DNA of 64,000 nt from a virus. Positions 2,072-33,908 of the stretch are shown piece after piece. The notes beneath the pieces were generated by a model that did no database searches, was not told where the DNA came from, and saw only the letters and a list, made by a program, of their open reading frames with translations. The stretch lies in the UHGV virus genome UHGV-0236300. One strand, 5' to 3'. Made by a program: the position numbers and the translations under genes. The first letter of the stretch is position 1. Each line of letters opens with the position of its first letter.

Positions 2072-2836
2072 TTGAAATTTATCTACAAAGAACACTACCA
2101 CAAAGGTGTCGTGTGGAGTCTATTTGACGGGTCTGGTGGTGCAGTTATTGACTGGGCAAAAGCTGGGTACCTGTGCCTGTGCTTTAATGCAGAAGGTGCT
2201 GACCACGGTAGTTATGCAGAGGTGATAACCGATCATCCTAACATTCACTATGTGGATTATTGGATTGATCCATGGTTCCCTCAAGAAACTTTTTGCATGT
2301 ATCCAGCTCCAGACTTTATTCTTGCATTTCCTCCGTGCACGCATTTAGCAGTATCCGGAGCTGCACACTTTAAGAAAAAGCTGGCTAAGGACCCACTGAT
2401 CCAAATTAATGCTGTGAAAGATGCTCGGGTTGCAGAAGAGTTGGGAGAGATTTATGATTGCCCGTGGCATGTAGAGAACCCTGTAGGAGTTATGTCAACA
2501 CTGTGGCGAAAACCTGATTACCGTTTTCATCCTTCGGATTATGGTGGGTATCTACCAGAGGACGATGTAAACCCATGGTTTCCTGAATTTATAGCTCCAC
2601 GTGATGCCTACCCAAAAATAACTTGCGGTTGGATAGGCAATGGATTTATAATCCCCGCCACAAAACCTGTCCCGCAAATAGTTGATGTGGTTAGTGGTTA
2701 TTCCATGCAACACGCTAAGCTAGGTGGAAAGAGTGCAAGGACGAAGATGATTCGAAGCCTTACACCACGTGGCTGGGCAAGAGCTGTATTCTTAGCAAAC
2801 GAGCCTGCAGTAAGGAGAAGAATTAATGGGCAGTAA
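2072..2836 (+). CDS. C5-cytosine methyltransferase-like protein (divergent, small)
   Basis: Motif I-like LFDGSGG, motif IV-like FPPCTHLAVSGA (PC dipeptide), motif VI-like HVENP; start taken as TTG 2072 after AGGAG, since GTG 2042 lies inside the terminator stem. Confidence 0.45.
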   Translation: MKFIYKEHYHKGVVWSLFDGSGGAVIDWAKAGYLCLCFNAEGADHGSYAEVITDHPNIHYVDYWIDPWFPQETFCMYPAPDFILAFPPCTHLAVSGAAHFKKKLAKDPLIQINAVKDARVAEELGEIYDCPWHVENPVGVMSTLWRKPDYRFHPSDYGGYLPEDDVNPWFPEFIAPRDAYPKITCGWIGNGFIIPATKPVPQIVDVVSGYSMQHAKLGGKSARTKMIRSLTPRGWARAVFLANEPAVRRRINGQ

Positions 2837-4904
2837 ATTCATGGCATCTGCATACAACCGTTTCGGTGAGCCAAACCCGAAAGCAACTAAGTATAAAAGT
2901 GGGGGAAGTGTGAAACGAGACTATCGTGATGAAAAAGAAGTTGAAACTGTAGAGACTGTTTTAGAAAATACTAAAATTGTCCCTGTTCCACAACAAAATA
3001 TTGGACTGATGGCTGCACAATATTTTGGTGTACGATCATCGCTATCCCAAGAGGATGGTGTAACTGTTACTGCCACCTACTTTCCGTATTATGACCGCTA
3101 CGGTAATCTATCTGGCTTTAAAAAGCGGGACTGGACAATCCCTAAAGAGCAAAGGGGCCATTTCTCGGTTGTTGGCATAGTAAAGGCCAACTCCCAGATG
3201 TTTGGTCAAAAGCTGTGTGCATCCTCCAACAACCGCAAGCAGATTAACGTTTGTGAGGGGGAAGGAGATGTTATTGCAGCGTGGCAGGCTGCATATCAGG
3301 TACAAGTAAAAGGAATTCTCACCAATACTAAAGCCCCGGCGAAGGTGAAGCAGTGGGCTAAAGAAGTCCAGGATGGGATTGATGCAGTTATCAACGGCGG
3401 TGATCTGGCAGGAAAACCATGCCTGCCTTTTGTCGGAATTAACTGCGGGTGTGCAAACGCCGTAGACACTTTTGCGAACAATGAGAAATTTATCCGTAGC
3501 TACGGAACAGTAGTCCTTGCAATGGACAACGATGCAGCTAACGAGGTAGAGAAGCAAAAACACGTTATCAAAGGTGTTGAAGCTACGCATAATATCGCAG
3601 CATTTTTGATGGCTGACAACGTTTACCACGTGGAATACCCAGGTGAGGTAAACGACCCTGATGGTGTAAAAGATATTCGTGACATGCTGAAGGCTAAAAA
3701 GCTGGAAGATATTGTCAACATGTTCCGTCACCCAGTCAAATATGTGCCTGATGCTGTATCTGATTTAGAAGACTTCTCCATTGAATCTCTTCGTAAGAAG
3801 ACTTCCAATGGCGTGGATATCAGTGCAGAGTTCCCTAAACTGCAGAAGATGCTGAAAGGACTCCACAAAGGCACCTTGATGATGCTGACAGGCCCGTCTG
3901 GCGGTGGTAAAACAACTGTAGCCAAGAAGCTGGAACATTGCATTGCAAGATACTTGATGGACCCAACATGCCCTAAAGCTGATGATTATGAAGAGGATGA
4001 TCGCCTGTGCCTGATTCACCTTGAAGAGGATCCTGAGGAAGCAATCAACTCTCTGTACGCTAACCAGCTGGGGTTTGATGTTAAAGAGTTTGTTGAAGAC
4101 CCCAGTCAGTTCCTGACCGATCAGGAGCACGCTGAGATTCATCAATCTTGGGCCAAGGCCGGAAAAATCAAAGTGTTCAAGCATTTCGGCTCCATCCCTG
4201 TAGATGAGCTGATCACTAAGCTTAAACAAATGGTGTGCCTGTATCACTGCCGTTACATTGTGCTGGATCACTTGTCTATGGTGATTTCAGGGCTTAATGT
4301 TAAGGATGAGCGTAAAGAGCTTGACATGGCTATGACTCAACTAGCCGCGTTCTGTAAGCAGTTTAATGTGTTTATCTTGGTGATTGCTCACCTGAAGCGC
4401 ACAGAGATTGTACCTCCGAAGGATAAGGATGGAAATCCGTTACCTTTCTGGTACCCTGTACGAAAAGAGAACCTTCGCGGTAGTGCCGGATTGGAGCAAC
4501 TTAGCTGGGTGGTTGTCGGGGTAGAGGCAGAGGAGATGGTGGATCGTTCCCGTGGGCGTGTCCGGCTGGTAGGTCTTAAAAACCGCCCAGCAAAAACCTT
4601 AGGTATTGCGGACACTCTAGTTATGGATCCCCACACAGGCAAGTTCCACGATGCCAGCAATTGGTATTGGGATAAAGAGATGCAGATGTTTACAGACGGG
4701 GAAGGTGGAGAGGTTGTTTGGAGACCTCAAGCTATGTTTGAGGATCAGGAGCATGCAGTTGTAGAAACACCTGTGGGCAAGGTTGTGGCTGATAAGGTTA
4801 TAACTCCTGCTGTTAACCCTGTTGACACACAGGAAGATCTTCAGTATGATGATCCGTCCTCTAACCACGTTCCTGGTTTTGAAGACGACGAAACACCTTT
4901 TTAA
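2826..4904 (+). CDS. DNA primase-helicase (T7 gp4-like)
   Basis: TOPRIM-like CEGEGDVIAAW; Walker A GPSGGGKTT; Walker B-like FILVIAHL; acidic C-terminus ending EDDETPF; RBS AAGGAGA. Confidence 0.85.
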   Translation: MGSKFMASAYNRFGEPNPKATKYKSGGSVKRDYRDEKEVETVETVLENTKIVPVPQQNIGLMAAQYFGVRSSLSQEDGVTVTATYFPYYDRYGNLSGFKKRDWTIPKEQRGHFSVVGIVKANSQMFGQKLCASSNNRKQINVCEGEGDVIAAWQAAYQVQVKGILTNTKAPAKVKQWAKEVQDGIDAVINGGDLAGKPCLPFVGINCGCANAVDTFANNEKFIRSYGTVVLAMDNDAANEVEKQKHVIKGVEATHNIAAFLMADNVYHVEYPGEVNDPDGVKDIRDMLKAKKLEDIVNMFRHPVKYVPDAVSDLEDFSIESLRKKTSNGVDISAEFPKLQKMLKGLHKGTLMMLTGPSGGGKTTVAKKLEHCIARYLMDPTCPKADDYEEDDRLCLIHLEEDPEEAINSLYANQLGFDVKEFVEDPSQFLTDQEHAEIHQSWAKAGKIKVFKHFGSIPVDELITKLKQMVCLYHCRYIVLDHLSMVISGLNVKDERKELDMAMTQLAAFCKQFNVFILVIAHLKRTEIVPPKDKDGNPLPFWYPVRKENLRGSAGLEQLSWVVVGVEAEEMVDRSRGRVRLVGLKNRPAKTLGIADTLVMDPHTGKFHDASNWYWDKEMQMFTDGEGGEVVWRPQAMFEDQEHAVVETPVGKVVADKVITPAVNPVDTQEDLQYDDPSSNHVPGFEDDETPF

Positions 4905-4962: not shown

Positions 4963-7386
4963 ATGAGCATGTGGTCGTTCGATTTTGAGGCCTCTGGCTT
5001 GCTGGAAGACCCAGATCTTTATTATCACTGCGGTTTGTTTAAAGAGCTGAATAAGAACCGTTTTATGCTGTTCCTTCCCCTAAATGACCGCACACACTAC
5101 TCTGAAGAGGATGTGGAGAAAGCTAAGAACTTCATTCTGGCAAAGAAGACCCTTTATACAGATTTTGAGGCTCGCATAGCAGATTTTTCAGAGTTGGAAG
5201 GCTGGCTTACAGGCAATTCAGACTGGTCACCTACGGCTTTGAACTGTCATAACTGCTACAGTTACGACTTTATGCTGATGGAAAGATTATCCGGTATTCA
5301 TTTTGATATGTTCCGTGATCCTAAATGCATGGGAACTATCAACGACCACCAGGTTAATCTGTTTGATACGTTAGCGATGAGTCGAATCTTGTGGCCTGAC
5401 CGCCCTTTGCCAAAAGGTTGTCCAGACGCAGTATTCAATCCAGTTACCAAGAAAATGCAGCCTGTTGGACCTCATGGTCTTATGGCATGGGGCTATGCCC
5501 TTGGTAACCAGAAAGTTCAAATCGATGACTGGCGGGAGCTTCCGCTGTGGAAGTATGTGGATCGTGTGTTCGAGGACGTTATCATTCAGGAGTTGCTCTG
5601 GAAGGAGTTGGTAGCGGAATCAAAAGGTGTATTCTACGGCAAATCTGACATGCAGAACTTTATGTACGATCCTGCCAAAGAGAAGCCGAAAGGCTTCAAG
5701 AAGATCACCTGGAAGAACGCATTACGCCGAGGCATGTTACAGCACTTCCTGATGGAGCTGCAGGCTCGACAGGGGGTGTATTTCGACATAGATGGGGCTA
5801 TTGCTTTACGTGATCGTTGCGATGCGTGGATGAAAGAGATCGCTGATCGTGTTGAACCACAGCTTCCTTTAAAAGAGTTATCAATGTCTCAGCGGCCTAA
5901 GTTCCCTGAAAAGCCGTTTAACCAGGATGGGACAATCTCCAATAATGGTTGGAAATGGTTAAAAGACAAGCTTGGCTATCCTGTGGACATGAGTGCTTTA
6001 GAATTTAAAGCCCCTCCTAAGCGAGCATTTACCTCCACAGGGGATGTAAGTAAGATGGGGATAAAATGGTGTGAAGAGATGGGCTGTAAAGACCCCGATA
6101 AGATGGCTGATTTCTTGAGGGGGTATATCAAAGGAACTTCTACACCACACCCTTTACCTAAAGAGCTGATGGATCAGGCGATAAGTGACCTACAGCAGAA
6201 GCGAATGCCTGACTGCAAGATACCCATGAAAATCAGCAATCAGGACGACATCAAGCGATACCTGATCAGTGCTGGTTGGCTCCCAACAATGTGGAGAACT
6301 AAGGATGTAACTAAGGATAGCAAGAAGAAAGCTTTACCTGATGCAGATGTTGATGCACGAGTATATGCATATATGGACGAGCTTTTGGAGTCAGAGTATT
6401 GTGACCTAATTATCAACTTCTGGAACAAAACTGATGCTAAGTTCCAGACAACTGTACATAAGTTCAGAAGCTTCCCTAACTCTGAAAGAATTAAAAAGGA
6501 AGTGTTCGGGAAAATACGTAGAAAAGCCAGAGCGCTTATTACTTCTCCGCAACTGAAAGATACGTTTGGGCACCTGTGCCCGAATCTTGAAAAATTGAAC
6601 GGAGAGATGGCTAAAGATATCGTTTTGTGGTTATCATTGCGAAACCGTAGATCGGTCCTTGATCCAATCAAGGAAGATAAGGTTGATACTGGTCTTCTTA
6701 ATCATCCACGTTTGAAGATTGACCACAAACTTCCTGCTAAAAGTTCTGGATTAACAAACACTTCCAGACAGAAACATAGTATTTGTGCAAACATGCCTAA
6801 ACCATCTCCTAAAGTGGTTATGGGTAAAGAGATGCGTAGTCTGTGGGGTGTTCCTCCGGGATACTTTGAGATCGGTATTGACGGGTCCAACTTAGAGCAG
6901 CTCATCGGGGCCTGGGGTGCCTTTGAGTTTGACAACGGTCTGTATTATGATGTTGTAAGTAACGGGGACGCGCACCAAAACAATGCTGAGGCATATACAA
7001 AAGTAGCAGGTAGAGAGGTGTCCCGTAACGATGGTAAACCTATCACGTATGGGGTTATGTATGGGGCACAAAAAGATAAAGTTGCAGATATGCTGGATAT
7101 CTCTCCCGAACTGGGGCAGAGAGTAATCGATGCTCTCTGGGATGCCAACCCAGGTCTTAAGGGGCGCAAAGAGGATCTGGAGAAATTCTGGGAAGCAACA
7201 GGTAAGAAATTTATCTACTCTTTTGACGGGCATGCTATTTGGACACGCTCTAAACACTCTTTGCTTAATGCATATCAGCAAAATGGCGGTGCATCACTGT
7301 GTGACCTAGTTGGGATACTCATGCACCACCAGATGGTGAAGCGTGGATGGTATGATGAGGGTGTTCGTCGTATTATTTATTACCAT
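4963..7386 (+). CDS. DNA polymerase, family A, exon 1 (proofreading domain, motifs A and B)
   Basis: Exo I FDFEASG; motif B RxxxKxxxYGVMYG; QQNGGASLCD segment like T7 QSAGALICK; frame hits stop at 7390-7392 just before the expected motif C. Confidence 0.85.
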
Positions 7387-8228
7387 AAATAACATTGTGG
7401 CTTCGTGCAGTGATGCACGTCGAAAACCTCTTTAATTGACGGGAAGGCTAAGTTGACTTTTACGCCTAAACATGGTAAAAGCTCAATATGCTAATCCGCA
7501 GCGAAGACTAAAGGGGTGTAGTTAAAATGGCTAGATCAGTTGATTATCACGGATATACCGTGTTTGATGATGGAACAATACCTTTATCGAAACGTGATCA
7601 TACAACAATGTTTTGTTTTGATAATGGTAGAGGTTACCTTTGCGTAACCATGCTCATCGAGGGGAAGCAGTGCACAAAAGGTGTCCACCACTTGGTTGCT
7701 GAATGCTTTGTACCGAACCCTGATCCTGAAAAGCTCACATGGGTGAACCATAAGGATGGAAATAAGTACAACAATGCATACTGGAACTTGGAATGGACTA
7801 CCCCTGGCGGAAATATCAAACACGCCTACGATAATGAACTCAGAGTAAGGCCAGTCGGTGAGTATAATGCCAACGCTGTACTGACCGAGGATGAGGTAAC
7901 GGAGATTTGTGAACTGTTGCAGAGTGGTCTACGACAATGCGAGATTAGGGATCTTGGGTATCCTTATGAGACGGTTAGGGCCATAAAGCAAAGAAGACAG
8001 TGGAAACATATCTCTAAAAACTACACCTGGTAGTAACGTTCAGAGACTATCGAAAGCATAGCTCCAACATAGTTTGGTGTGAAGAAGCGAGTAGAGTAGG
8101 CCAGCAAGTGCGGTCGAAATGAGAGGTGCCTTGGTGACAAGGCAGTGAGATAGTCCGATCCATACAGGAAACCGTATGGCTGTGCACGTAATGGTGCGGG
8201 GTAGCTTAACGACCTACCTGAACTATTG
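7387..8228 (+). mobile_element. group I self-splicing intron with HNH endonuclease ORF, interrupting the DNA polymerase gene
   Basis: Core elements P AATTGACGGGAAGG (7434-7447), Q AATCCGCAGC (7493-7502), R GTTCAGAGACTA (8038-8049), S AGATAGTCC (8148-8156); upstream exon ends in U (7386), intron ends in G (8228); candidate P1 between exon CCAU and intron GUGG (7397-7400). Confidence 0.8.
7527..8033 (+). CDS. HNH homing endonuclease (intron-encoded)
   Basis: HNH motif HHLVAEC...NHKDGNKYNNAYWNLEW; ORF sits between intron elements Q and R. Confidence 0.8.
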   Translation: MARSVDYHGYTVFDDGTIPLSKRDHTTMFCFDNGRGYLCVTMLIEGKQCTKGVHHLVAECFVPNPDPEKLTWVNHKDGNKYNNAYWNLEWTTPGGNIKHAYDNELRVRPVGEYNANAVLTEDEVTEICELLQSGLRQCEIRDLGYPYETVRAIKQRRQWKHISKNYTW

Positions 8229-8582
8229 GATGAGTACCAACTTCAAGTGCCTGACACACCTAAGTATAAAACTGTATACACCTTCGACACAATTGAAGAG
8301 CTGGAAACATTTAAAGCCCAACAAGAGGCTAAACTTCATGTGTTCGACGGTCATAAGTACAAAAAGGCACGCAAAGATGAGGACGGAAACGAAGTGGTTG
8401 ACAAGGACGGAAATACGGTATACGATCCTATCTTGAACGATGACGGAAAGCTTGAACTTATCTGGAGCCCTGTGGGCGAAATGGTGGTGCATTGCTTCTG
8501 GCAGGCTTCTAAAATGATGGGCGTTCCGTTCCAGATCACAGGTGAATACTTGTGCGGTCGTAACTGGGGCGATTGTCACTAA
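8229..8582 (+). CDS. DNA polymerase, family A, exon 2 (motif C and C-terminus)
   Basis: Begins GAT GAG directly after intron 3' G; with exon 1 gives YYH|DEYQ (motif C HDE); ends GRNWGDCH with terminal His as in T7 gp5. Confidence 0.7.
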   Translation, partial: DEYQLQVPDTPKYKTVYTFDTIEELETFKAQQEAKLHVFDGHKYKKARKDEDGNEVVDKDGNTVYDPILNDDGKLELIWSPVGEMVVHCFWQASKMMGVPFQITGEYLCGRNWGDCH

Positions 8583-8633
8583 TGTAAACTATCAACACAC
8601 GGAAGTGTTGTTAGACAAAGAGAGGAGACTTTT

Positions 8634-8918
8634 ATGGTAGTAGAACCAACAAAAACATTTACCTCCATGACTATCCCTGTCATTATGCAGGTAGAGTGCG
8701 TTCAGGTGTCCCAAGTGTGGCCCGGTACTAAAATTCCAACAGGGCCTGATTTCTTTCAGGTCGGCAAAGTGTATAATGTCTGGAAGGCACCGGATTGTTA
8801 CCCTTTCATTAAAGATGACCGTGGAATGTTATGGTATCTGGGGAATGATTTGACACTGCATCTTGGAAATGCTATTATTGCAGTGTTCCGGCTCAACAAG
8901 AAGGAGACAGATCAATGA
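8634..8918 (+). CDS. hypothetical protein, tandem paralog family member 1 (KDD-G-W motif)
   Basis: RBS GAGAGGAG; shares GKVY...KDDRG.LWYL with the next two ORFs. Confidence 0.5.
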   Translation: MVVEPTKTFTSMTIPVIMQVECVQVSQVWPGTKIPTGPDFFQVGKVYNVWKAPDCYPFIKDDRGMLWYLGNDLTLHLGNAIIAVFRLNKKETDQ

Positions 8919-9142
8919 CAACTTTGGTTAAAGCTACGTTTGTAGAAGAAAAGATGACAGACCTGTCATTCTTTGAAGAAGGTAAGGTCTACAAGGTTTA
9001 TTACGATAAGGATCGCAGGAACAATATGATCGAAGACGAGGACGGTATCTCCTGGTATATCTCCCATCTGTCAAATGGTGAGTATCATATCTATGGGACC
9101 ACCCTACTTGCCAAGTTTGCAGTTGTTGAAGAGGATCTATGA
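8915..9142 (+). CDS. hypothetical protein, tandem paralog family member 2
   Basis: ATGA-coupled start; GKVYKVY...EDEDGISWYI motif. Confidence 0.5.
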   Translation: MTTLVKATFVEEKMTDLSFFEEGKVYKVYYDKDRRNNMIEDEDGISWYISHLSNGEYHIYGTTLLAKFAVVEEDL

Positions 9143-9333
9143 AAGTAAAGTATCTGGCTGAAGGTATGAGTAGGTATTTTACCCTTGGGGAAGAGTATTG
9201 GCCCTTCACGGAAAATGGAGATGTATACGTGAAGGATGACCAAGGTGTGCCGTGGTTTCTGCACCCTAATGGGTTGGGATATTCCATCTACTGCGGTGCG
9301 GTGAACAACACAACCCTTGCAGAGTTTGTATAG
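9139..9333 (+). CDS. hypothetical protein, tandem paralog family member 3
   Basis: ATGA-coupled start; VKDDQGVPWFL motif. Confidence 0.5.
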   Translation: MKVKYLAEGMSRYFTLGEEYWPFTENGDVYVKDDQGVPWFLHPNGLGYSIYCGAVNNTTLAEFV

Positions 9334-9343
9334 AGGAGGTAGA

Positions 9344-9715
9344 ATGTTAGTAAAAGGTACCCACACAGTCAAGCAACGTATTGAAGTTGAGATTGATGAT
9401 TGTGAGCTGAAGCATATTTTACGGTCATGCTCCAACGTTTTGCTCCTTAGTATTCTTCAGGAGCGAGCGGAGAACGAGTTCTTAAATGCACTGGCAGGCC
9501 GTCCTGGGGACTTCTGTGTGCGTAAGCGTGAAGATCGTAAGTCATGGTTGTGGGAAATCGATGCCGACTGGGATTACCACAAAAATGAGGGTATAGATGA
9601 GCCTATTCGTGAATTGACAGACAAAGAGATTCAGATGTACAATGAAGTTTGTCATTGGGCAAAACGCCAACAAATTTACCTCGACCCTGTGTGGATGATT
9701 GAAAATAGTCATTGA
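9344..9715 (+). CDS. hypothetical protein
   Basis: ORF; ATG 9344 preceded by GAGGAGG. Confidence 0.5.
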   Translation: MLVKGTHTVKQRIEVEIDDCELKHILRSCSNVLLLSILQERAENEFLNALAGRPGDFCVRKREDRKSWLWEIDADWDYHKNEGIDEPIRELTDKEIQMYNEVCHWAKRQQIYLDPVWMIENSH

Positions 9716-9740
9716 CAAGAGGTAAGATTGGATATAAGAT
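9712..9740 (+). promoter_or_regulatory. sigma70-like promoter (candidate)
   Basis: TTGACA at 9712-9717, -10-like TAAGAT 17 nt downstream. Confidence 0.35.
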
Positions 9741-9791
9741 TCTTCACACAAACAGAGATTTGATTTTTAAATAATTGAGGAGACTGCTAAG

Positions 9792-10046
9792 ATGCAAATC
9801 ACTTTGAAGCCAGAATGCGTTGCAAATGACCGAGCTTTTAAAGATTGCACACTCGGTGCAATTTATGAAGCAGAATTTTGTGAGAACCCTCTGGTAAAAG
9901 CCCTTCTGGAAGAAGGAACCTATTTATCACAAGAAGAGCTTGATGAGTTGGAAAACTCGGCCCAGTGTCTTACCTTTAAAGATGATGAAGGGGATTCTGT
10001 CTGGTGCACTGTTAACGAAGTAGTTTTTGTAAAACCTGAGCATTAA
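9792..10046 (+). CDS. hypothetical acidic protein, paralog of 10110-10382
   Basis: RBS GAGGAG; RAFKDCT and KDDEGDSVWCT motifs shared with next gene. Confidence 0.55.
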   Translation: MQITLKPECVANDRAFKDCTLGAIYEAEFCENPLVKALLEEGTYLSQEELDELENSAQCLTFKDDEGDSVWCTVNEVVFVKPEH

Positions 10047-10049
10047 TAC

Positions 10050-10078
10050 TTGACAATAGAGATGGGGTCTAATATAAT
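10050..10078 (+). promoter_or_regulatory. sigma70 consensus promoter
   Basis: TTGACA, 17-nt spacer, TATAAT (perfect consensus). Confidence 0.6.
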
Positions 10079-10109
10079 GGCCCTATCAAAACGAAAGGAG
10101 ACCACAGCA

Positions 10110-10382
10110 ATGACCAAACAATATCAACGAATTAAAGCCAAGGTTAAGCCAGACTATCTGGAGAAGGACTCTGCTTTTCGGGACTGCACAGCAGACAAAA
10201 TTTACACAGGGGCCGTCCTGCTAAACGATGAATTTGAAGTGGATGTGCTAGGTAAGGAGGCTACTATCAAGGATGACCAGGGGGATTATGTTTGTTGCAC
10301 CACCAGAGAGCTGGAGGTATTAGAATACTTCGGTGAAATCTTCACCTCTCTTGATGATTACTTAGATGACGAGGAAGCGTGA
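10110..10382 (+). CDS. hypothetical acidic protein, paralog of 9792-10046
   Basis: ATG 10110 after AAAGGAGA; SAFRDCT and KDDQGDYVCCT motifs. Confidence 0.55.
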   Translation: MTKQYQRIKAKVKPDYLEKDSAFRDCTADKIYTGAVLLNDEFEVDVLGKEATIKDDQGDYVCCTTRELEVLEYFGEIFTSLDDYLDDEEA

Positions 10383-10783
10383 TGAAAAACATTTGGGATA
10401 TTAATATCTTTGAAGCCTCTGAGCTTGACGGTGCCGATGGAGTTATTATAGTCTCTGATGGAAAGGTAACATTGACCTCTGGACTGACCTATGAGGACAC
10501 TACCTACGCACTGGGAGATCTTGCCTTGTTGAAATCAACAGGTGACTCTCTGGAAGAACGTCTGCAAGGATTTGCCTTTAAAGAAGGCACAAGCACCACA
10601 CTGATGTGCACTACACGCACTGTTCAGTTGGGCAACGGGGTCTATATGGTCATTGCAGTGTGCCCCAAATTCAGCAACATCAATAAAGATGATGCTGACG
10701 CTGTCAACGACGTGGTTGTCCTCTTCGTTGGTGACGCTATGGCAGATCTGATGAATGCAGGAGAAGCAGCAAATGAAGACTGA
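10379..10783 (+). CDS. hypothetical acidic protein
   Basis: ATGA-coupled ORF, RBS GAGGAAG. Confidence 0.5.
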   Translation: MMKNIWDINIFEASELDGADGVIIVSDGKVTLTSGLTYEDTTYALGDLALLKSTGDSLEERLQGFAFKEGTSTTLMCTTRTVQLGNGVYMVIAVCPKFSNINKDDADAVNDVVVLFVGDAMADLMNAGEAANED

Positions 10784-11075
10784 AAACATCAACCCAACAG
10801 GATTCTTGAAAGTATACCGTGAACTGCTATATACTACAGAGGACAGTGTTCTAGAGTACCCAGAATACCTTTTGCTGTATAAGTATCTACAAGAAGCTGG
10901 TGAAAATCTACCAGTTAGTGCAGAAGGCGGTCCGAACTGGATATACAGCGCATGGAGAAAGGTTGACATTCTCCCAGATCCAGGAAAAGATATGGTAGTT
11001 TGGCAGCTTATCAACAACATCGGGATTCCAATCTTTGATGAAGCTGTTAAAATCTATTTTGAACTTGACGATTAA
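10773..11075 (+). CDS. hypothetical protein
   Basis: ATG 10773 after AGGAGAAG. Confidence 0.45.
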   Translation: MKTENINPTGFLKVYRELLYTTEDSVLEYPEYLLLYKYLQEAGENLPVSAEGGPNWIYSAWRKVDILPDPGKDMVVWQLINNIGIPIFDEAVKIYFELDD

Positions 11076-11092
11076 TATCAGGAGACCTTAAG

Positions 11093-11338
11093 ATGGCTGG
11101 AGTAGTTGCTCGCGCAGGACAGAAAGTACGTTGTGTTGAAGTTGGTTTCGGCGGCAAAGGTTGCCAGAACCTAACACAAGGTAAGGAATACGCTGTTATT
11201 TCTGGTGGTGGAGATAAGAGCATTGTGTTCGATGATCATATTCTGGATGCTGAAAACTTTGAAATATTTGACGATGATGGCGATCCGATCACCTGCCTGC
11301 TGAACGGAAGCTGGGGCACTTTCGAAGTAATTGGCTAA
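11093..11338 (+). CDS. hypothetical protein
   Basis: 81-aa ORF, RBS CAGGAGA. Confidence 0.5.
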   Translation: MAGVVARAGQKVRCVEVGFGGKGCQNLTQGKEYAVISGGGDKSIVFDDHILDAENFEIFDDDGDPITCLLNGSWGTFEVIG

Positions 11339-11375
11339 CAAATAGCTGTTGTAATTTACAGAAGGAGATGCTAAA

Positions 11376-11786
11376 ATGGTGTCTCCTTTATGTTGTTCAA
11401 ATAAAATCGGAGATTCCACAATGGAACAAATGAACGATCAAGCGTCGGTTGCGATGAACGAGCAAGAACAACCTCAAGAATTTTTCTTAGGGTTAAGCAA
11501 AGATCAAGTGTCTCTTCTGCTGGTACTTTCTTCTTTCATGGGGAGACTTCAGGAGCTCACACAACAACCAGAGGCTGAACAGTTATTCCAGGCTCTGCGA
11601 GAAGAAGAGAAATATCGTCGTTTGGATTATGCCTTAGGTTGGGTAGCTCAACAACGAGATATGCTAATGGCCCTTTCTGGGACGACGAGTTTTGCAATGG
11701 GCCTGTTAGCTCAAGTCCAGGACAAATTAATTCAAGCAGGGTTTGCACATACATCAACCACTAACGAAGAACAAGGAGATAAATAA
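11376..11786 (+). CDS. hypothetical protein
   Basis: 136-aa ORF, RBS GAAGGAGA. Confidence 0.5.
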   Translation: MVSPLCCSNKIGDSTMEQMNDQASVAMNEQEQPQEFFLGLSKDQVSLLLVLSSFMGRLQELTQQPEAEQLFQALREEEKYRRLDYALGWVAQQRDMLMALSGTTSFAMGLLAQVQDKLIQAGFAHTSTTNEEQGDK

Positions 11787-13012
11787 TGAGCGTTATCCAA
11801 CAATTTGCTAACCCGATGAATCCGCGTGAAACTGTTTTACTGGCTCACGGTATGATTAAACGTGTCAGCATCAAGCCCATTAAAGGTGCTGATCCTACAA
11901 CAGGTATTAAAACCACTGTGTGGCAAGGTAAGAAAATTGAATCCAGCCACACCATCTCTTTACTGATTTCTGAACTGGACTCCTCTGATAACCTGCTCCA
12001 AGGTGGTGAAGAAGTTTGGATCAGCATGGGTGATAAGCTGCTTAAGCCTGGTCATCAAGACTCCGTCTCTGTTAAAATTGATGACAAGTGGGAAACAGTA
12101 ACGCCAGGATGGATCGTAAATATCCCTTTAAAGGCAAATGAGCATAACGGTAAGACCTACTACAAAGGCTCACTGGCTAAAATGGTTAAGTTGGGGGCAG
12201 GAGAGGCTCCATCAGCTCCACAGCAACAAAAACAGCAACAAGGCACACAATCACAAGGCCAGAAGCAGAAACCTCAGCAGAATGCCAATCAGGACGTTTT
12301 ACGCATCTATGGTGATGTGACTCAGATTGTTGGTAACGTGGTTACTGTCAATGACCACAAGATTGGCGAAGGTGCTATGGTTGTCTCCGATGAGCAGCTT
12401 AAAGACCTGGTGGTTGGCGGTCGTGTTGCAGCTATTGTTGACAAAGACACCGGGAATATTATCAGCGGCTTCAAGGCCTACCCGCCTAAAGCAGAGAACG
12501 GTACACAAGGTTCTGGTGGTAAGCGTAAATCCTCTTACGACCCCATCGGTGTAGAGACAGGGCACAGTATCAATGCATTGCAGATCATCCTGGATCGCGG
12601 GTTTAAGATTGACAGCCCTTTAGATGTGGCTAAAACACTGCACGTGGTCACCATCGAGCTTAAGAAAGAGTACGCTCAAGCCACTAACCGAACTGAAGAT
12701 GAAGTAGGTGCCAGTGTTGGTAATGCGGTATTGAACGCTTGTCGCCGTATTGACAAGAAAACGAAAGTTGATGATTTTGCAGTAGCAATTACTGCAGAGG
12801 CAAAAGATGTCTTGACTAATCTTGCTGAACCGTTGTATGATTGGATCAAGAACGGTGCTGGAGCCACTGACCATCAAGAGCCTCAAGCTGCCAAACAGGA
12901 AGCCGCCCCACAGCAAAACACTGTAGACGCTCCTCCTGTAGATGATGCGGAAGACGACCCGATGGATCAGAATCCGGCACAGTACGCCTTTGATGATGAC
13001 ATACCTTTTTAA
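11786..13012 (+). CDS. putative ssDNA-binding protein with SSB-like acidic C-terminal tail
   Basis: Q-rich linker (PQQQKQQQGTQSQGQKQKPQQ) and C-terminal ...AFDDDIPF, identical to the E. coli SSB C-terminal hexapeptide; sits in the replication module. Confidence 0.5.
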   Translation: MSVIQQFANPMNPRETVLLAHGMIKRVSIKPIKGADPTTGIKTTVWQGKKIESSHTISLLISELDSSDNLLQGGEEVWISMGDKLLKPGHQDSVSVKIDDKWETVTPGWIVNIPLKANEHNGKTYYKGSLAKMVKLGAGEAPSAPQQQKQQQGTQSQGQKQKPQQNANQDVLRIYGDVTQIVGNVVTVNDHKIGEGAMVVSDEQLKDLVVGGRVAAIVDKDTGNIISGFKAYPPKAENGTQGSGGKRKSSYDPIGVETGHSINALQIILDRGFKIDSPLDVAKTLHVVTIELKKEYAQATNRTEDEVGASVGNAVLNACRRIDKKTKVDDFAVAITAEAKDVLTNLAEPLYDWIKNGAGATDHQEPQAAKQEAAPQQNTVDAPPVDDAEDDPMDQNPAQYAFDDDIPF

Positions 13013-13028
13013 CATCTAGTTAACATAG

Positions 13029-13056
13029 CCCTACCCGAAAGGGTGGGGCATTTTTG
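13029..13056 (+). terminator. rho-independent terminator
   Basis: Stem CCCTACCC/GGGTGGGG, GAAA loop, then CATTTTTG. Confidence 0.6.
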
Positions 13057-15435: not shown

Positions 15436-15768
15436 ATGGTAACATTAGAAAGACGTAAAGCTATCGCCGCCACACTGGCAGACATCTTTTGGGATTGCAA
15501 TTTAAAAGATACCCGATATTGCGGCGCATCTGTAGATGTATTATTCCCACGGCCCACCATTGTTGCAATGGGTAGCCTGCTGGGTGTAGTTGCAGGTGCA
15601 TGGGATAAGGAAGGTGGTTTCTATATCTGGCAGCCTGACTACGGGACCTGGAAAGAAGTAAGGGGTGCTGATGACTTTGGGCCTGCAGTTGCTAAGATGG
15701 ATGGCTGGGAAATTTATGTTGGAAACGACATGAAGCTGAAAGGTGAGATTGTTTACTGGTTACCTTAA
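15436..15768 (+). CDS. hypothetical protein
   Basis: 110-aa ORF in co-oriented array. Confidence 0.45.
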   Translation: MVTLERRKAIAATLADIFWDCNLKDTRYCGASVDVLFPRPTIVAMGSLLGVVAGAWDKEGGFYIWQPDYGTWKEVRGADDFGPAVAKMDGWEIYVGNDMKLKGEIVYWLP

Positions 15769-15788
15769 TAAAACGCAGGAGATAAAGT

Positions 15789-16034
15789 ATGAACAAAGGG
15801 TGGACATTTGTAGACGGCGTTAAAAACATGCCTCTAGGAAAGTATATTGTAGCCATGGCAGATGAGAATGGCAAGGTGGATTTCGGAGTTTGCGAGATTG
15901 TTCTTGCAGGATCTGGTGACTATGCCCACAAAACTGGGATAATTAACGGTCATTTCTACTTTGATTACAACCCTGTTGTGGCGTATATGGCTATGCCAGA
16001 GTTAGAGCTCCCAAAGGAGGGTGCAGATGTTTAA
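15789..16034 (+). CDS. hypothetical protein
   Basis: 81-aa ORF, RBS CAGGAGA. Confidence 0.5.
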   Translation: MNKGWTFVDGVKNMPLGKYIVAMADENGKVDFGVCEIVLAGSGDYAHKTGIINGHFYFDYNPVVAYMAMPELELPKEGADV

Positions 16035-20303: not shown

Positions 20304-20490
20304 TTTTGAGAAGATTGTAAAGCGATCTCATGATTCCGAAGAGTTGCCGGAACGCCGCCAGCGTAACAATAAACTGAATAAGCCAAAAAGATTTGGAAAG
20401 ATCTGGCGAAATCATTATGATCGTAAATTGCCTGGCCTACTTTTGGAACGTGAACGACAGGCAGAACGATACCGCCATAAAGACAAATAA
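20293..20490 (+). CDS. hypothetical basic protein
   Basis: ATG after AAGGGGGG; K/R-rich. Confidence 0.4.
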   Translation: MKINFEKIVKRSHDSEELPERRQRNNKLNKPKRFGKIWRNHYDRKLPGLLLERERQAERYRHKDK

Positions 20491-20498
20491 CAACCAAC

Positions 20499-20527
20499 GC
20501 CCCGCCATTGTGCGGGGCTTTTTATTT
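20499..20527 (+). terminator. rho-independent terminator
   Basis: Stem CCCCGC/GCGGGG, loop CATTGT, then TTTTTATTT. Confidence 0.6.
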
Positions 20528-20670
20528 CTATTCTACGAATAGCGCCCCTGGTTGGCCCTGTAAGCGCCAAAAAGGCCCCCACCTATGCAATCGCCCCTTT
20601 AACCTGAAAACATCGCCCAGGGCCGTTTTATGGCGTTAAAAATATTATTGGCAGTGATTTTATTTAAAGC

Positions 20671-22652: not shown

Positions 22653-23263
22653 TGTCTGCTCTTCTCCTACCATAAACGGCCCTACCTGGCAAGTGGAATA
22701 ATTGACTAGCCATCAATCCCACATACTGTACAAATATACATGGAAAATAACTATTGCATAATCTTTCATTGTGTGGTAGCAGGGCCATTTTTACCCGTTT
22801 TCTCTCCCAAAAGTGCACGTAATGCCGCTATTGCACAAATTTTAACCTGATGCACATCTCCAATATCTTGTCAACAACTAAAAATCTTTATAAGTCATAC
22901 ACTTACACAGCATCGAAAGCGTGTTCTACGCGAAAAATCGAGTATAACTATAGCCGCCAGATCTCAGAATTCACGTACGCACGCCATTCTATAGTCTGCA
23001 AAGTATTTATTCCAACCACAGAATAACGGAATAGTCAATACCTGCATAAAATAATTATTCGTGTAAACTGCATAACATAAATCAGCTCAGGTGTCAACAT
23101 TTTTCGTAAACAGTTCGAAATTGTCACGATAAGTTATTATACACAGAGAAATCTTTAGTCGTCTAATGTTTACTGTACATTACTATACTGACTGGAATCA
23201 TTAGATGACTAAGAGAAAGATAAGAAATAATTAATAATGTAATTGTTTTACCTGTAACAATAA

Positions 23264-23440
23264 GGCAACTATGCAAACGAATGGCATGGCGCGACGGAGT
23301 CGCGACATAATATAAAAGCAGTAACAATCACCCCCGTGATAGTTTTTCTGCAATCTATTATTCAGATCATAGTTGCCTTGTATTTAGTTAATCATGACAT
23401 AACAAGCAAGGCAACTATAGATCTTCTAATAGTTGCCCTG
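23264..23440. repeat. CATAGTTGCC direct and inverted repeats
   Basis: Motif at 23264 (rev), 23368 (fwd), 23410 (rev), 23429 (fwd); 23368-23420 is a 13-bp-arm imperfect palindrome. Confidence 0.5.
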
Positions 23441-25113: not shown

Positions 25114-25329
25114 TCAGTCCAAAGGTTCATCTACTACTTCACTGAAATCAATGTTCAGGGTCTCTTCCCAACCATCAATCTCAGCACCAGAGTAGAGATC
25201 TTTAGGGTCTACATCAAGGGCTTCCGCAACAGCATCTATATTTAACACTTCTGGCAGGTAAGATTCATCGAATTCAAGGTAAATCAGGCCACGAGTGTTG
25301 TCAGTCCCACCAAATATTTCTATTTTCAT
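25114..25329 (-). CDS. hypothetical acidic protein
   Basis: ATG preceded by AGAGGAG. Confidence 0.45.
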   Translation of the reverse strand: MKIEIFGGTDNTRGLIYLEFDESYLPEVLNIDAVAEALDVDPKDLYSGAEIDGWEETLNIDFSEVVDEPLD

Positions 25330-26133
25330 GAAATCTCCTCTGGAAATGAGAGTGTGAACAGGGTTTATACGTTCCAATACGCTGGAATTATGCACGTTTG
25401 CCTCTTCAGGCCATGCTTTAGCATGATAAACTTATGTGGGCTCGGTGCTTCATAGTCTCCCACCTCTGAACTCTTCGTGCTCGGGCATAATAGAGAACCA
25501 GATGGCTATGATATCTTCCCACGTTAGGTCATCAGCCTCAGGATCCACCTGGGACGGAGATAGAGAATCCTCAGAATTGAAGTTTTCCTCTATCACTCCT
25601 TCAGATGTCTCTGTAGATGCATGTGTGTTGGTCATGTTCCACCCGTGAGTATTCCGGCAACATGTTTAAAAAATAAGACTTTATCAACATATGGCCGGAA
25701 CGTGTCGATGCCATAAGCATATTCCTGCAACAGCCGCTATGGACGTAATGATCATCAGGATCACCACTAAAACCTCTGACAATGTTTTCATTGTGTATTC
25801 CATATTATCCAAACAATGTGTGGATACTATCACAGGGGCGGTAATGTGTCAACAGAAGCGCCGCGAGGGTTTGGTTAAAATCCGAGCGTATGGTGATTTG
25901 GGTCAAAACGGGCGTGCGTTCTCGCTACGCTCGAAATAGAGAGTTGTTTGTAGGATGACTTTAAACGCTCTGTAAGGAGATTAATTGTCTAAGGTATGGA
26001 ATCGTGCACCAGATAAAGAAAAGGACGCCACAGAGCGTCCTAGGTGCCTTAAATTTGATATTTTGCTATACCCATGAGGGCTTGTCTAGGTTGGAGTAAC
26101 TGAAGGGGGTCAAAAGGTGACTGTCAAAATCTT

Positions 26134-27086: not shown

Positions 27087-27338
27087 TTAACGTTCTACAA
27101 AAATACCGTTCAGTTCAATAACCAGGAATTTCTGGTCTTCACTATCGTCACGTGCCAGCACCTCACAGACGTAACGGTCATCTCCGTCATCATCACAGTC
27201 AAACACAAGGCTGAGGACTTTATCATGATAAACCTTCGCCACTACCGCCTCGTAAGTGTTGCCGATTGTGAATCCAAGATAATCCCCGATGCATTTGACA
27301 ACAACATGGTCGCCAGCATTTAAGTCAATCTTCGTCAT
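27087..27338 (-). CDS. hypothetical protein
   Basis: ATG after AAGGAGC. Confidence 0.45.
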   Translation of the reverse strand: MTKIDLNAGDHVVVKCIGDYLGFTIGNTYEAVVAKVYHDKVLSLVFDCDDDGDDRYVCEVLARDDSEDQKFLVIELNGIFVER

Positions 27339-33112: not shown

Positions 33113-33307
33113 TTAGAATACTGCTTCTTCCATTGCACCTGAGAGCAACAAAGAGGTAATCTGGCTAACATTCATCTCAGACTCCACTTCCTCCCCTTTG
33201 AAAGGTTCGCGGCAGAATAGGACTGTTTCAGGATTTTTACTTCGAACAATATAATACAAATCATTCAAAGTGTTGTAGTAATAAGTGTTAAAACGTAAGT
33301 TTTTCAT
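33113..33307 (-). CDS. hypothetical protein
   Basis: RBS AAAGGGGA. Confidence 0.45.
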   Translation of the reverse strand: MKNLRFNTYYYNTLNDLYYIVRSKNPETVLFCREPFKGEEVESEMNVSQITSLLLSGAMEEAVF

Positions 33308-33591
33308 TTTCTAGTCCCCTTTTTAGATTTTTGTGCAGAAACGCTTTCTGCAATACGAGACAGGCGTTCTTCTGAAGCTTTACCTACTCCAGGTTTCTTG
33401 AGCGGGCTATCTTTATGACCGCAATCCAATTGGATGCTAGATACATCCCCAACCTTGTAAGTCAATTCTAGCAAAAGGTTGTCGTCCTTGTCAAATGTTT
33501 TTACGATAAATTTTTTATCGTCCTCCTTAACTTCATATCTAGTACCTGCAGTGTACAGCATGGTGCCATCAGCGTAGGATATCCAGATCAT
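33304..33591 (-). CDS. hypothetical protein
   Basis: RBS GAAGGAGG; ATGA-coupled. Confidence 0.5.
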   Translation of the reverse strand: MIWISYADGTMLYTAGTRYEVKEDDKKFIVKTFDKDDNLLLELTYKVGDVSSIQLDCGHKDSPLKKPGVGKASEERLSRIAESVSAQKSKKGTRK

Positions 33592-33908
33592 TGCACCTCC
33601 TTCTGCTGCAACAGCATCAACTCTTTGTTGGAAATCTTTACTGCTGTCTTTATTGTCCCATCTTCACGGAACCACGACCAGAATTCTACAGTGTCACCAC
33701 TATCAAGCAAGGCATGACCATGGTAAAAATCTTTGTCCTTAGACAGTTTCTCATCTATATCTGCATCGACACATTCGTGATCCATAGCATTCTGCCTGAA
33801 TGCATCGGTTATGCCAATGCACGCCTTACTCTCAAGGCTGGTATACCCAATATCTTTTAATTCAGTTCCCAAGTCCAGTATCCTACAAAAGCTACAACAG
33901 CCACCCAC
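33588..33908 (-). CDS. hypothetical protein (start uncertain)
   Basis: ORF beginning with GTG; overlaps a better-initiated 25-aa hydrophobic ORF (33857-33934) in another frame. Confidence 0.35.
   Translation of the reverse strand: MGGCCSFCRILDLGTELKDIGYTSLESKACIGITDAFRQNAMDHECVDADIDEKLSKDKDFYHGHALLDSGDTVEFWSWFREDGTIKTAVKISNKELMLLQQKEVQ

Follow-up and report, generated by a model that had tools for sequence, protein, structure and literature searches.

The Small Genes Downstream of the DNA Polymerase Gene

What kind of proteins are encoded by the small genes that follow the DNA polymerase gene of rV5-like phages, where they carry the label 'hypothetical protein' in all matching Vequintavirus genomes, and do these genes form a single family? 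The question is raised by a stretch of 64,000 nucleotides of the virus genome UHGV-0236300 (the window in what follows), which is that of a Vequintavirus, an rV5/FV3-like coliphage, its region 8000-11500 matching more than 110 genomes of the genus at 90–98% identity, among them those of FV3, rV5 and the BASEL phages Bas51 and Bas52. Five open reading frames (ORFs) of this region, here named A, B, C, E and F, had been described in a first-pass annotation as tandem paralogs of the replication module, expanded locally and with no assignable function. Sequence comparison makes A, B and C, together with a nearby gene I, firm members of one superfamily of predicted small β-barrels that is found outside the genus, with E and F as probable divergent members, and the proteins are possibly binding factors that act on the host.

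All five ORFs are on the plus strand at the positions that the annotation gave them, and the A/B and B/C junctions overlap by ATGA, as it had described. The barrel domain of gene A (8634-8918, 94 residues, ortholog of rV5 gp219) is preceded by an N-terminal extension, and in this domain β1 (...MQVECVQV) comes before FFQVGKVY...IKDDRGMLWYL. Gene B (8915-9142, 75 residues, gp218) carries GKVY...EDEDGISWYI, and gene C (9139-9333, 64 residues, gp217) is a minimal single domain with YFTLGEEY...VKDDQGVPWFL. Further downstream are gene E (9792-10046, 84 residues, isoelectric point (pI) 4.1, gp215), with AFKDCT...KDDEGDSVWCT and an insertion between its first and second motifs that is probably helical, and gene F (10110-10382, 90 residues, pI 4.2, gp214), with AFRDCT...KDDQGDYVCCT and an acidic C-terminal tail (...SLDDYLDDEEA).

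The five ORFs evidently are real protein-coding genes, because all have a strong Shine–Dalgarno sequence 5–9 nucleotides upstream of the ATG (GAGAGGAGAC in the case of gene A) and all are under purifying selection, with ratios of nonsynonymous to synonymous substitution (dN/dS) across eight genomes of 0.02 for A, which is the most constrained, 0.28 for B, 0.10 for C, 0.11 for E and 0.13 for F. Because of the placement of its Shine–Dalgarno sequence, gene F likely starts at the ATG at 10110, as the annotation had assumed, and not at the TTG of a longer ORF that begins at 10050. The five genes are present in about 118 Vequintavirus records, where gene A of APECc02 (L005, 2501-2818) has an in-frame tandem duplication of 11 residues (KAPDCHPFIKE/KAPNCYPFIKD).

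Two Groups of Paralogs

The motif that had suggested a relationship, KDD[QER]G, occurs as it was first written, and chance is excluded by codon shuffling: the six-frame translation of the window holds four matches, all in A, C, E and F (8811-10283), against a mean of 0.02 in 200 codon shuffles. A relaxed form, [KE]D[DE].G, has 10 matches in the window, half of them in the five ORFs, against a shuffle mean of 0.8.

As judged by profile comparison, A, B and C are paralogs of one another and E and F are paralogs of each other. Hidden Markov models (HMMs) built from two of the three A/B/C families were searched against the 897 six-frame ORF segments of the window, and the third family was the next match every time, with noise beginning at E-values of 0.07–0.3: the A+B model found C at an E-value of 2.9e-4 (noise from 0.3), B+C found A at 5.8e-6 and A+C found B at 5.5e-5. 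The HMMs of E and F detect each other reciprocally at about 3e-7, and the two have cross-matches in PHROG at 1e-5. In all-against-all blastp, E and F are 34% identical over 73 residues (E-value 2e-9) and A and B 38% identical over 45 residues (2.5e-5), while A and C share a 12-residue motif only; the hhalign probabilities obtained with shallow ortholog profiles are 94% for E–F, 82% for A–B and 44% for B–C. In a MAFFT alignment A, B and C are collinear over the whole domain, and eight residues are invariant among 32 A/B/C sequences, namely F20, G23, Y26, D41, G44, W47, A66 and F68.

The two groups do not detect one another with their own profiles. In the window, the A/B/C profile leaves E, F and I undetected, and the E+F profile reaches I at an E-value of 1.5 only; by their own sequences the genes therefore form two groups and not one family of five. 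The local expansion that the annotation proposed is borne out by the leave-one-out models and by the reciprocal match of E and F, with the qualification that the link between the groups is weak. The arrangement is not strictly tandem either, since an unrelated gene, D (9344-9715), separates C from E.

A Superfamily Beyond the Genus

Word-indexed searches of a database of 5.8 billion proteins with the A/B/C and E/F/I profiles yielded nothing beyond Vequintavirus orthologs and damaged variants of them. A third such search, with a broad alignment, A5, brought in eight further relatives and no more, and among 50,697 phage records searched by tblastn with the concatenated proteins there was no match outside Vequintavirus. 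It was an exhaustive HMMER search with the A/B/C profile against 1.84 billion representatives that found true remote relatives. Some of them are single-domain proteins (P0097, P0101, P0089 and P0086), and others repeat the domain two to five times in tandem (P0088, P0090, P0092, P0093, P0095, P0096 and P0098), among which P0095 has two barrel copies followed by a C-terminal DUF3310 domain. The long matches P0087, P0094 and P0100 were rejected as β-helix or Reg_prop propeller proteins, matched spuriously through repeated D..G..W turns. The repeats have the consensus G..h.C(h)......[FW][FW]TxGKEYxV......h.h.DDxGD, and a collinear order of motifs holds throughout alignments A1, A3 and A5, consisting of β1 (h.h.C/h), [FWY][FWT]xGxxY, h.h.D[DE]xG and an aromatic strand.

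An HMM made of metagenomic protein units, with no sequence from the window in it (the foreign-only profile), was searched against the same 897 ORF segments and recovered C at an E-value of 1.4e-9, B at 1.5e-8, I at 2e-7 and A at 4e-7. The corresponding hhalign probabilities range from 95 to 98% for A, B, C and I (A 96%, C 97.6%, I 95.4%). The recovery of I by this profile therefore makes it a firm fourth member, and on these profile matches A, B, C and I are the four firm members of one superfamily. An iterated HMM search inside the window converged on these same four genes only, with an ORF at 33307-33663 (minus strand) staying borderline at an E-value of 1e-3. Gene I (11093-11338, plus strand, 81 residues, ortholog of rV5 gp211) reads GQKVRCVEV...NLTQGKEYAV...FEIFDDDGDPITC; it is a close architectural match to the metagenomic protein P0109, and of the 21 sequences in alignment A5, one of which is I itself, 8 match the PHROG of gene I, 4927.

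A fifth, dispersed member is probably encoded far from the cluster on the opposite strand, by an ORF of 83 residues at 27087-27338 (minus strand; MTKIDLNAGDHVVVKCIGDYLGFTIGNTYEAVV...VFDCDDDGDDRYVCE), which matches the superfamily profile collinearly over its full length in hhalign (88%, E-value 3e-6) and at an E-value of 0.1 only in plain HMMER. The list of five in the annotation was incomplete, as it missed the firm member I and this probable one. Another small ORF, at 33304-33591 on the minus strand, shows an FTxG..Y / DDxG pattern and is borderline (HMMER E-value 1e-3, hhalign 8%). PHROG scans gave no cross-links for 27087-27338 or for 33307-33663. The barrel family may be dispersed over the genome, 64 kb of which is in view.

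Members of alignment A5 match more than 10 PHROGs, including those of A, B, C and I, and nearly all of these are of 'unknown function' (3523, 4927, 12623, 12802, 12922, 3249, 10169 and others). A Pfam scan of the ten ORFs of the block gave nothing for A–F, and no Pfam model that covers the domain was found, the matches to DUF7244 being below threshold. A WYL domain (PF13280), considered for gene A on account of its literal WYL...FRL, was rejected, as no profile match was obtained at an E-value of 1 or below.

The distant homologs lie in the early regions of siphophage contigs of about 42 kb, close to a D5_N/DUF5906 primase-helicase, as in the case of P0105 and P0106, the latter directly upstream of it. 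T1-like phages also seem, from profile matches, to carry several barrels of this class. Early ORFs of Bas11 (L008) at 20370-20555, 23148-23339, 25217-25654, 15579-15944 (minus strand) and 11760-11930 match the superfamily profile with hhalign probabilities of 38–86%; gp54 of the same phage scores 1.7%.

Predicted Fold

Structures were predicted with AlphaFold2 without templates, using the A/B/C alignment for gene B and the E/F/I alignment for gene F. The model of B (predicted local distance difference test (pLDDT) 92.8, predicted template modeling score (pTM) 0.81) has six strands and a short helix in a long β1–β2 loop, and these are the features that define the Gp54 fold, a six-stranded small β-barrel with a prominent β1–β2 loop. 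Gene B is accordingly modeled as the rare six-stranded barrel described for Gp54 of phage Bas11. A Foldseek search of BFVD with this model retrieves many uncharacterized proteins of 60–80 residues at template modeling scores of 0.7–0.8, often several per genome, from Drexlerviridae, relatives of Vequintavirinae and others. The secondary matches of B are FeoA and RecD SH3-like domains.

The model of F (pLDDT 81) is five-stranded and follows the order of elements seen in B, and its best matches in the PDB are SH3/KOW barrels; gene F is predicted to be a five-stranded SH3-like barrel with an acidic tail. Both models match the SH3 domain of RecD (5ld2_D) and 2cre_A. The earlier statement that no function could be assigned still holds for biochemical function, and has given way, at the level of models, to a Gp54-like fold and a wide family.

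One Superfamily or Two Unrelated Families

The place of E and F is the least settled part of this classification. On the combined comparisons they are probably divergent members of the superfamily, a tie that rests on the KDDxG motif, on a weak collinear hhalign match and on the similar predicted SH3-like barrel. The other possibility, that A/B/C/I and E/F are independent and that KDDxG is a convergent motif of β-hairpin turns, is a serious contender to which about one chance in three is conceded; it would fit the failure of the two groups to detect each other. Several observations run counter to it. All four exact KDD[QER]G motifs of the 64 kb lie within A, C, E and F. Against the foreign-only profile the combined E+F profile reaches a weak hhalign probability of 25% (E-value 8e-4), collinear over 55 columns, compared with 0.1–0.3% for the four control genes D, G, H and J. 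The order of secondary structure is the same in both groups (β1, short helix, β2, β3, turn, β4), 5ld2_D and 2cre_A are matched by both models, and in the foreign repeats P0090 and P0097 the FTxGKEY of A/B/C/I occurs together with the DDxGD of E/F.

Genome Setting and Expression

The block follows the replication genes of the phage. The primase-helicase (2814-4901), exon 1 of a family-A DNA polymerase (4963-7392), an HNH homing endonuclease (7527-8033) within an intron-like gap of the polymerase gene and polymerase exon 2 (8226-8582) are all on the plus strand. A sub-threshold Rfam match to a group I intron is found at 7377-7633 (31 bits, gathering score 50, E-value 4.5e-5). The two polymerase pieces were joined by the BASEL annotators, and elsewhere exon 2 is a separate 'hypothetical protein' or 'DNA polymerase'. 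After exon 2, on the same strand, come A (8634), B (8915), C (9139), D (9344), E (9792), F (10110), G (10382), H (10773), I (11093), J (11421) and K (11786-13012).

Gene D (9344-9715, plus strand, 123 residues, ortholog of rV5 gp216) is the non-member between C and E: it shows no similarity to the A/B/C or E/F group in blastp or hhalign and has its own PHROG, 6273, and the gp21 record of PVP-SE1 is annotated as similar to rV5 gp216. Within the block, only gene H (10773-11075, plus strand, rV5 gp212) reaches the threshold of a Pfam model (DUF7238, 30.6 bits, cutoff 27), and G, D and J have no such match. The product of gene K (plus strand, 408 residues) has a Q-rich linker and ends in DDDIPF, the C-terminal tip of the E. 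coli single-stranded DNA-binding protein (SSB); the Pfam scan gave nothing for it. A 2026 preprint describes the Bas52 ortholog of K, Bas52_0087, as SSB-like, with two OB-folds, and as required for activation of the DRT10 reverse-transcriptase defense. A strong terminator-like hairpin lies 3' of gene K at 13028-13049. Sixteen unannotated 'Campylobacter phage' records (MG0656xx, host Campylobacter jejuni) have about 90% DNA identity to the rV5-like region, and their host label looks doubtful.

No terminator-like site is found between polymerase exon 2 and genes A–D. Transcription of these genes would continue from the DNA polymerase operon, and they would be translationally coupled. Genes E and F would each have a σ70-type promoter of their own. 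Upstream of E, on the plus strand, lies the promoter-like site TTGACA-17-TAAGAT (9712-9740), annotated as P220 in the rV5 RefSeq record, and upstream of F, also on the plus strand, a perfect consensus, TTGACA-17-TATAAT (10050-10078, 12 of 12 matches), at a place where PhagePromoter predicted a promoter in phage Gotham. The latter site falls inside the TTG-started long form of F. An Rfam scan found no RNA family inside 8634-10382, and an snR75 match at 10349-10424 was dismissed as chance.

A Possible Role in Host Take-Over

Small early proteins of unknown function account for a large part of phage genomes, and it is chiefly from them that take-over factors, anti-defense proteins and defense triggers come. 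The favored explanation places the cluster among them. Its genes would have arisen by ancient duplication, with strong divergence since, and would encode small β-barrels of 60–95 residues that stand alone, with E and F as a divergent five-stranded SH3-like pair that is probably an offshoot of the same superfamily. The proteins would have no enzymatic activity and would serve as protein-binding modules, with host proteins as their targets in take-over or counter-defense and phage proteins as less likely ones; the paralogs would have diverged towards different targets, and some, like Gp54, may be sensed directly by bacterial immune proteins. Binding modules typically occur in tandem arrays such as those of the metagenomic relatives. 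The mechanism proposed here is drawn by analogy from Gp54, a non-essential small protein of Bas11 that activates CapRelSJ46 by binding directly to its antitoxin domain (PMC11578894). Taken as a whole, the explanation by protein-binding accessory factors acting on host proteins is given a probability of roughly 0.45.

That the genes are accessory is indicated by comparison with related genera and by natural variants. In PVP-SE1, PBES02 and ICP1, whose polymerases are 45–59% identical, other small genes lie downstream, and a six-frame search of the 7 kb to each side of the polymerase match found no family member; this marks the block as specific to the genus, and as accessory rather than part of the replisome core. 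Conservation together with the polymerase and the primase-helicase in related genera, which would mark a core accessory class of the replisome, is not observed. Gene B, moreover, is frameshifted and truncated in one isolate, Bas51 (WalterGehring; L001, 4914-5081), and the database variants P0058 and P0069 comprise a fusion of F and G through a deletion and an F with an internal deletion that removes the AFRDCT motif. Of the placement in a replication module, then, the position is correct, between the split polymerase and the SSB-like K, and membership of the replisome core is not upheld, since members are absent there in related genera.

Position is also what sustains the main alternative for their role, unlikely though not negligible, that the proteins are replisome or recombination adaptors that bind the polymerase, the primase-helicase or the SSB-like K and tune phage DNA replication, possibly through contacts with the DDDIPF tip of K or by way of the acidic tail of F, which contains aromatic residues. 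Apart from their location between polymerase and K, genes A–D would be translationally coupled and have no terminator-like site separating them from exon 2, the constraint on gene A matches that on the polymerase (dN/dS 0.02 versus 0.06), and the distant homologs P0105 and P0106 are neighbors of a primase-helicase in other phages. This reading is opposed by the related genera just mentioned, which have the same module and no members downstream of the polymerase gene, by the inactivation of B in a viable isolate and by the dispensability of Gp54 for Bas11; in T1-like phages, in addition, the fold occurs among generic early genes, and no member matches a known replication-protein family. Very improbable is the idea of nucleic-acid-binding regulators, in which Sm/KOW/Tudor-like barrels would act on RNA or DNA and control phage transcription or translation, as the strongly acidic pI of B, C, E, F and I (4.1–4.6) argues against direct nucleic-acid binding.

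The host-directed reading itself has to be set against a number of points that weigh against it. At least 113 of the 118 phage records that match contain the complete block, which fits a conserved partner better than an arms race, and gene A, with 98–100% amino-acid identity and its dN/dS of 0.02, would likewise be better explained by a conserved, possibly phage, partner. In unrelated siphophage contigs the homologs adjoin replication genes, so that the role may yet be linked to replication. The membership of E and F is weak, in that HMMER with the foreign-only profile gives F at an E-value of 0.65 and leaves E undetected, and the fold match of A/B/C with Gp54, which comes without a sequence link, could be convergence. 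The predicted promoters are consensus matches only, and the literature yielded no transcriptome of an rV5-like phage and no expression data. The literature on escape mutants of Vequintavirinae, for its part, points to a Dam methyltransferase and to the SSB-like K, and not to the cluster genes.

Comparison with Known Systems

Six or seven 'hypothetical proteins' of rV5 can now be assigned to one definable superfamily, less surely in the case of E and F and probably in that of 27087-27338 (minus strand). The superfamily can be recognized by its signature in sequence, the fold is confidently predicted for B, and a structural tie leads to the CapRel trigger Gp54, the only characterized protein of that fold. 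This assignment is useful for annotation and for the design of experiments, the cluster region being carried by the tractable BASEL phages Bas51 and Bas52, and is not surprising in itself. If the link to immune sensing were true, an observation made on a single phage would extend to a widespread class of proteins; otherwise these would be ordinary accessory genes.

Among domain families, DUF7244 (PF23896) is the sole Pfam model with repeated weak collinear matches (14.3 bits for I, 21.8 bits for P0092 and P0098), all of them below its gathering score of 27, and there is no match at all to it in A, B, C, E or F. DUF3310 (PF11753) is the domain of SaV, an early, toxic protein of lactococcal phages that sets sensitivity to AbiV and for which a role in host shut-off has been proposed (PMC8306868). 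It is linked to the barrels by a single metagenomic fusion, P0095, and offers the parallel of a presumed take-over factor that is also a defense trigger, although in the Pfam scan DUF3310 itself is absent from the window proteins.

Small SH3/Tudor-like barrels are already known as the largest bacterial-virus-specific fold clusters, with about 1.3% of the clustered proteins and function unknown (10.1101/2025.05.14.653371). The cluster proteins fit that class of the Viral AlphaFold Database; beyond what the survey describes, a signature in sequence is defined for them, together with architectures of tandem repeats and a local expansion of six to seven members. The Gp54 family was likewise known; what is new is a separate sequence superfamily with the Gp54 fold, with tandem-repeat and DUF3310-fused architectures and with the six- to seven-member expansion in rV5-like phages.

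Gp54 (PDB 9axb; PF25180, 'Phage antiviral trigger protein Gp54') is alike in its fold to the predicted barrel of B, and is not matched by E or F. In sequence it stands apart from A/B/C, with 14% identity and hhalign probabilities of 0.1–1.7%; hmmsearch against the PDB, hhalign and PHROG gave no sequence link, and PF25180 has no match at an E-value of 1 or below in A–F, I or the others, whereas Gp54 itself scores 116 bits. The two also differ in distribution, Gp54 belonging to PHROG 7421 and to a phage of the Drexlerviridae, A/B/C to other PHROGs and to phages of the Vequintavirinae. On binding, the barrel of Gp54 opens and β1 and β6 become disordered, its contacts with CapRel including G24, I25, S39, L41 and W43, and close homologues from Bas5, Bas8, Bas10 and SECphi27 do not activate CapRelSJ46 (PMC11578894). 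The best local hhalign match puts G23 of B opposite G24 of Gp54, and a manual alignment of the G-x-x-W motif would place W47 of B opposite W43. A bold conjecture, held with little confidence, would go further and unite the FTxGKEY–DDxG barrels and Gp54 in one pan-phage class of metamorphic mini-barrels that open their core onto a target, where the invariant G and W (G24 and W43 in Gp54) would be the pattern read by CapRel-type fused toxin–antitoxin sensors, and the six to seven rV5 copies would serve as a toolbox against host factors and as immune triggers or decoys.

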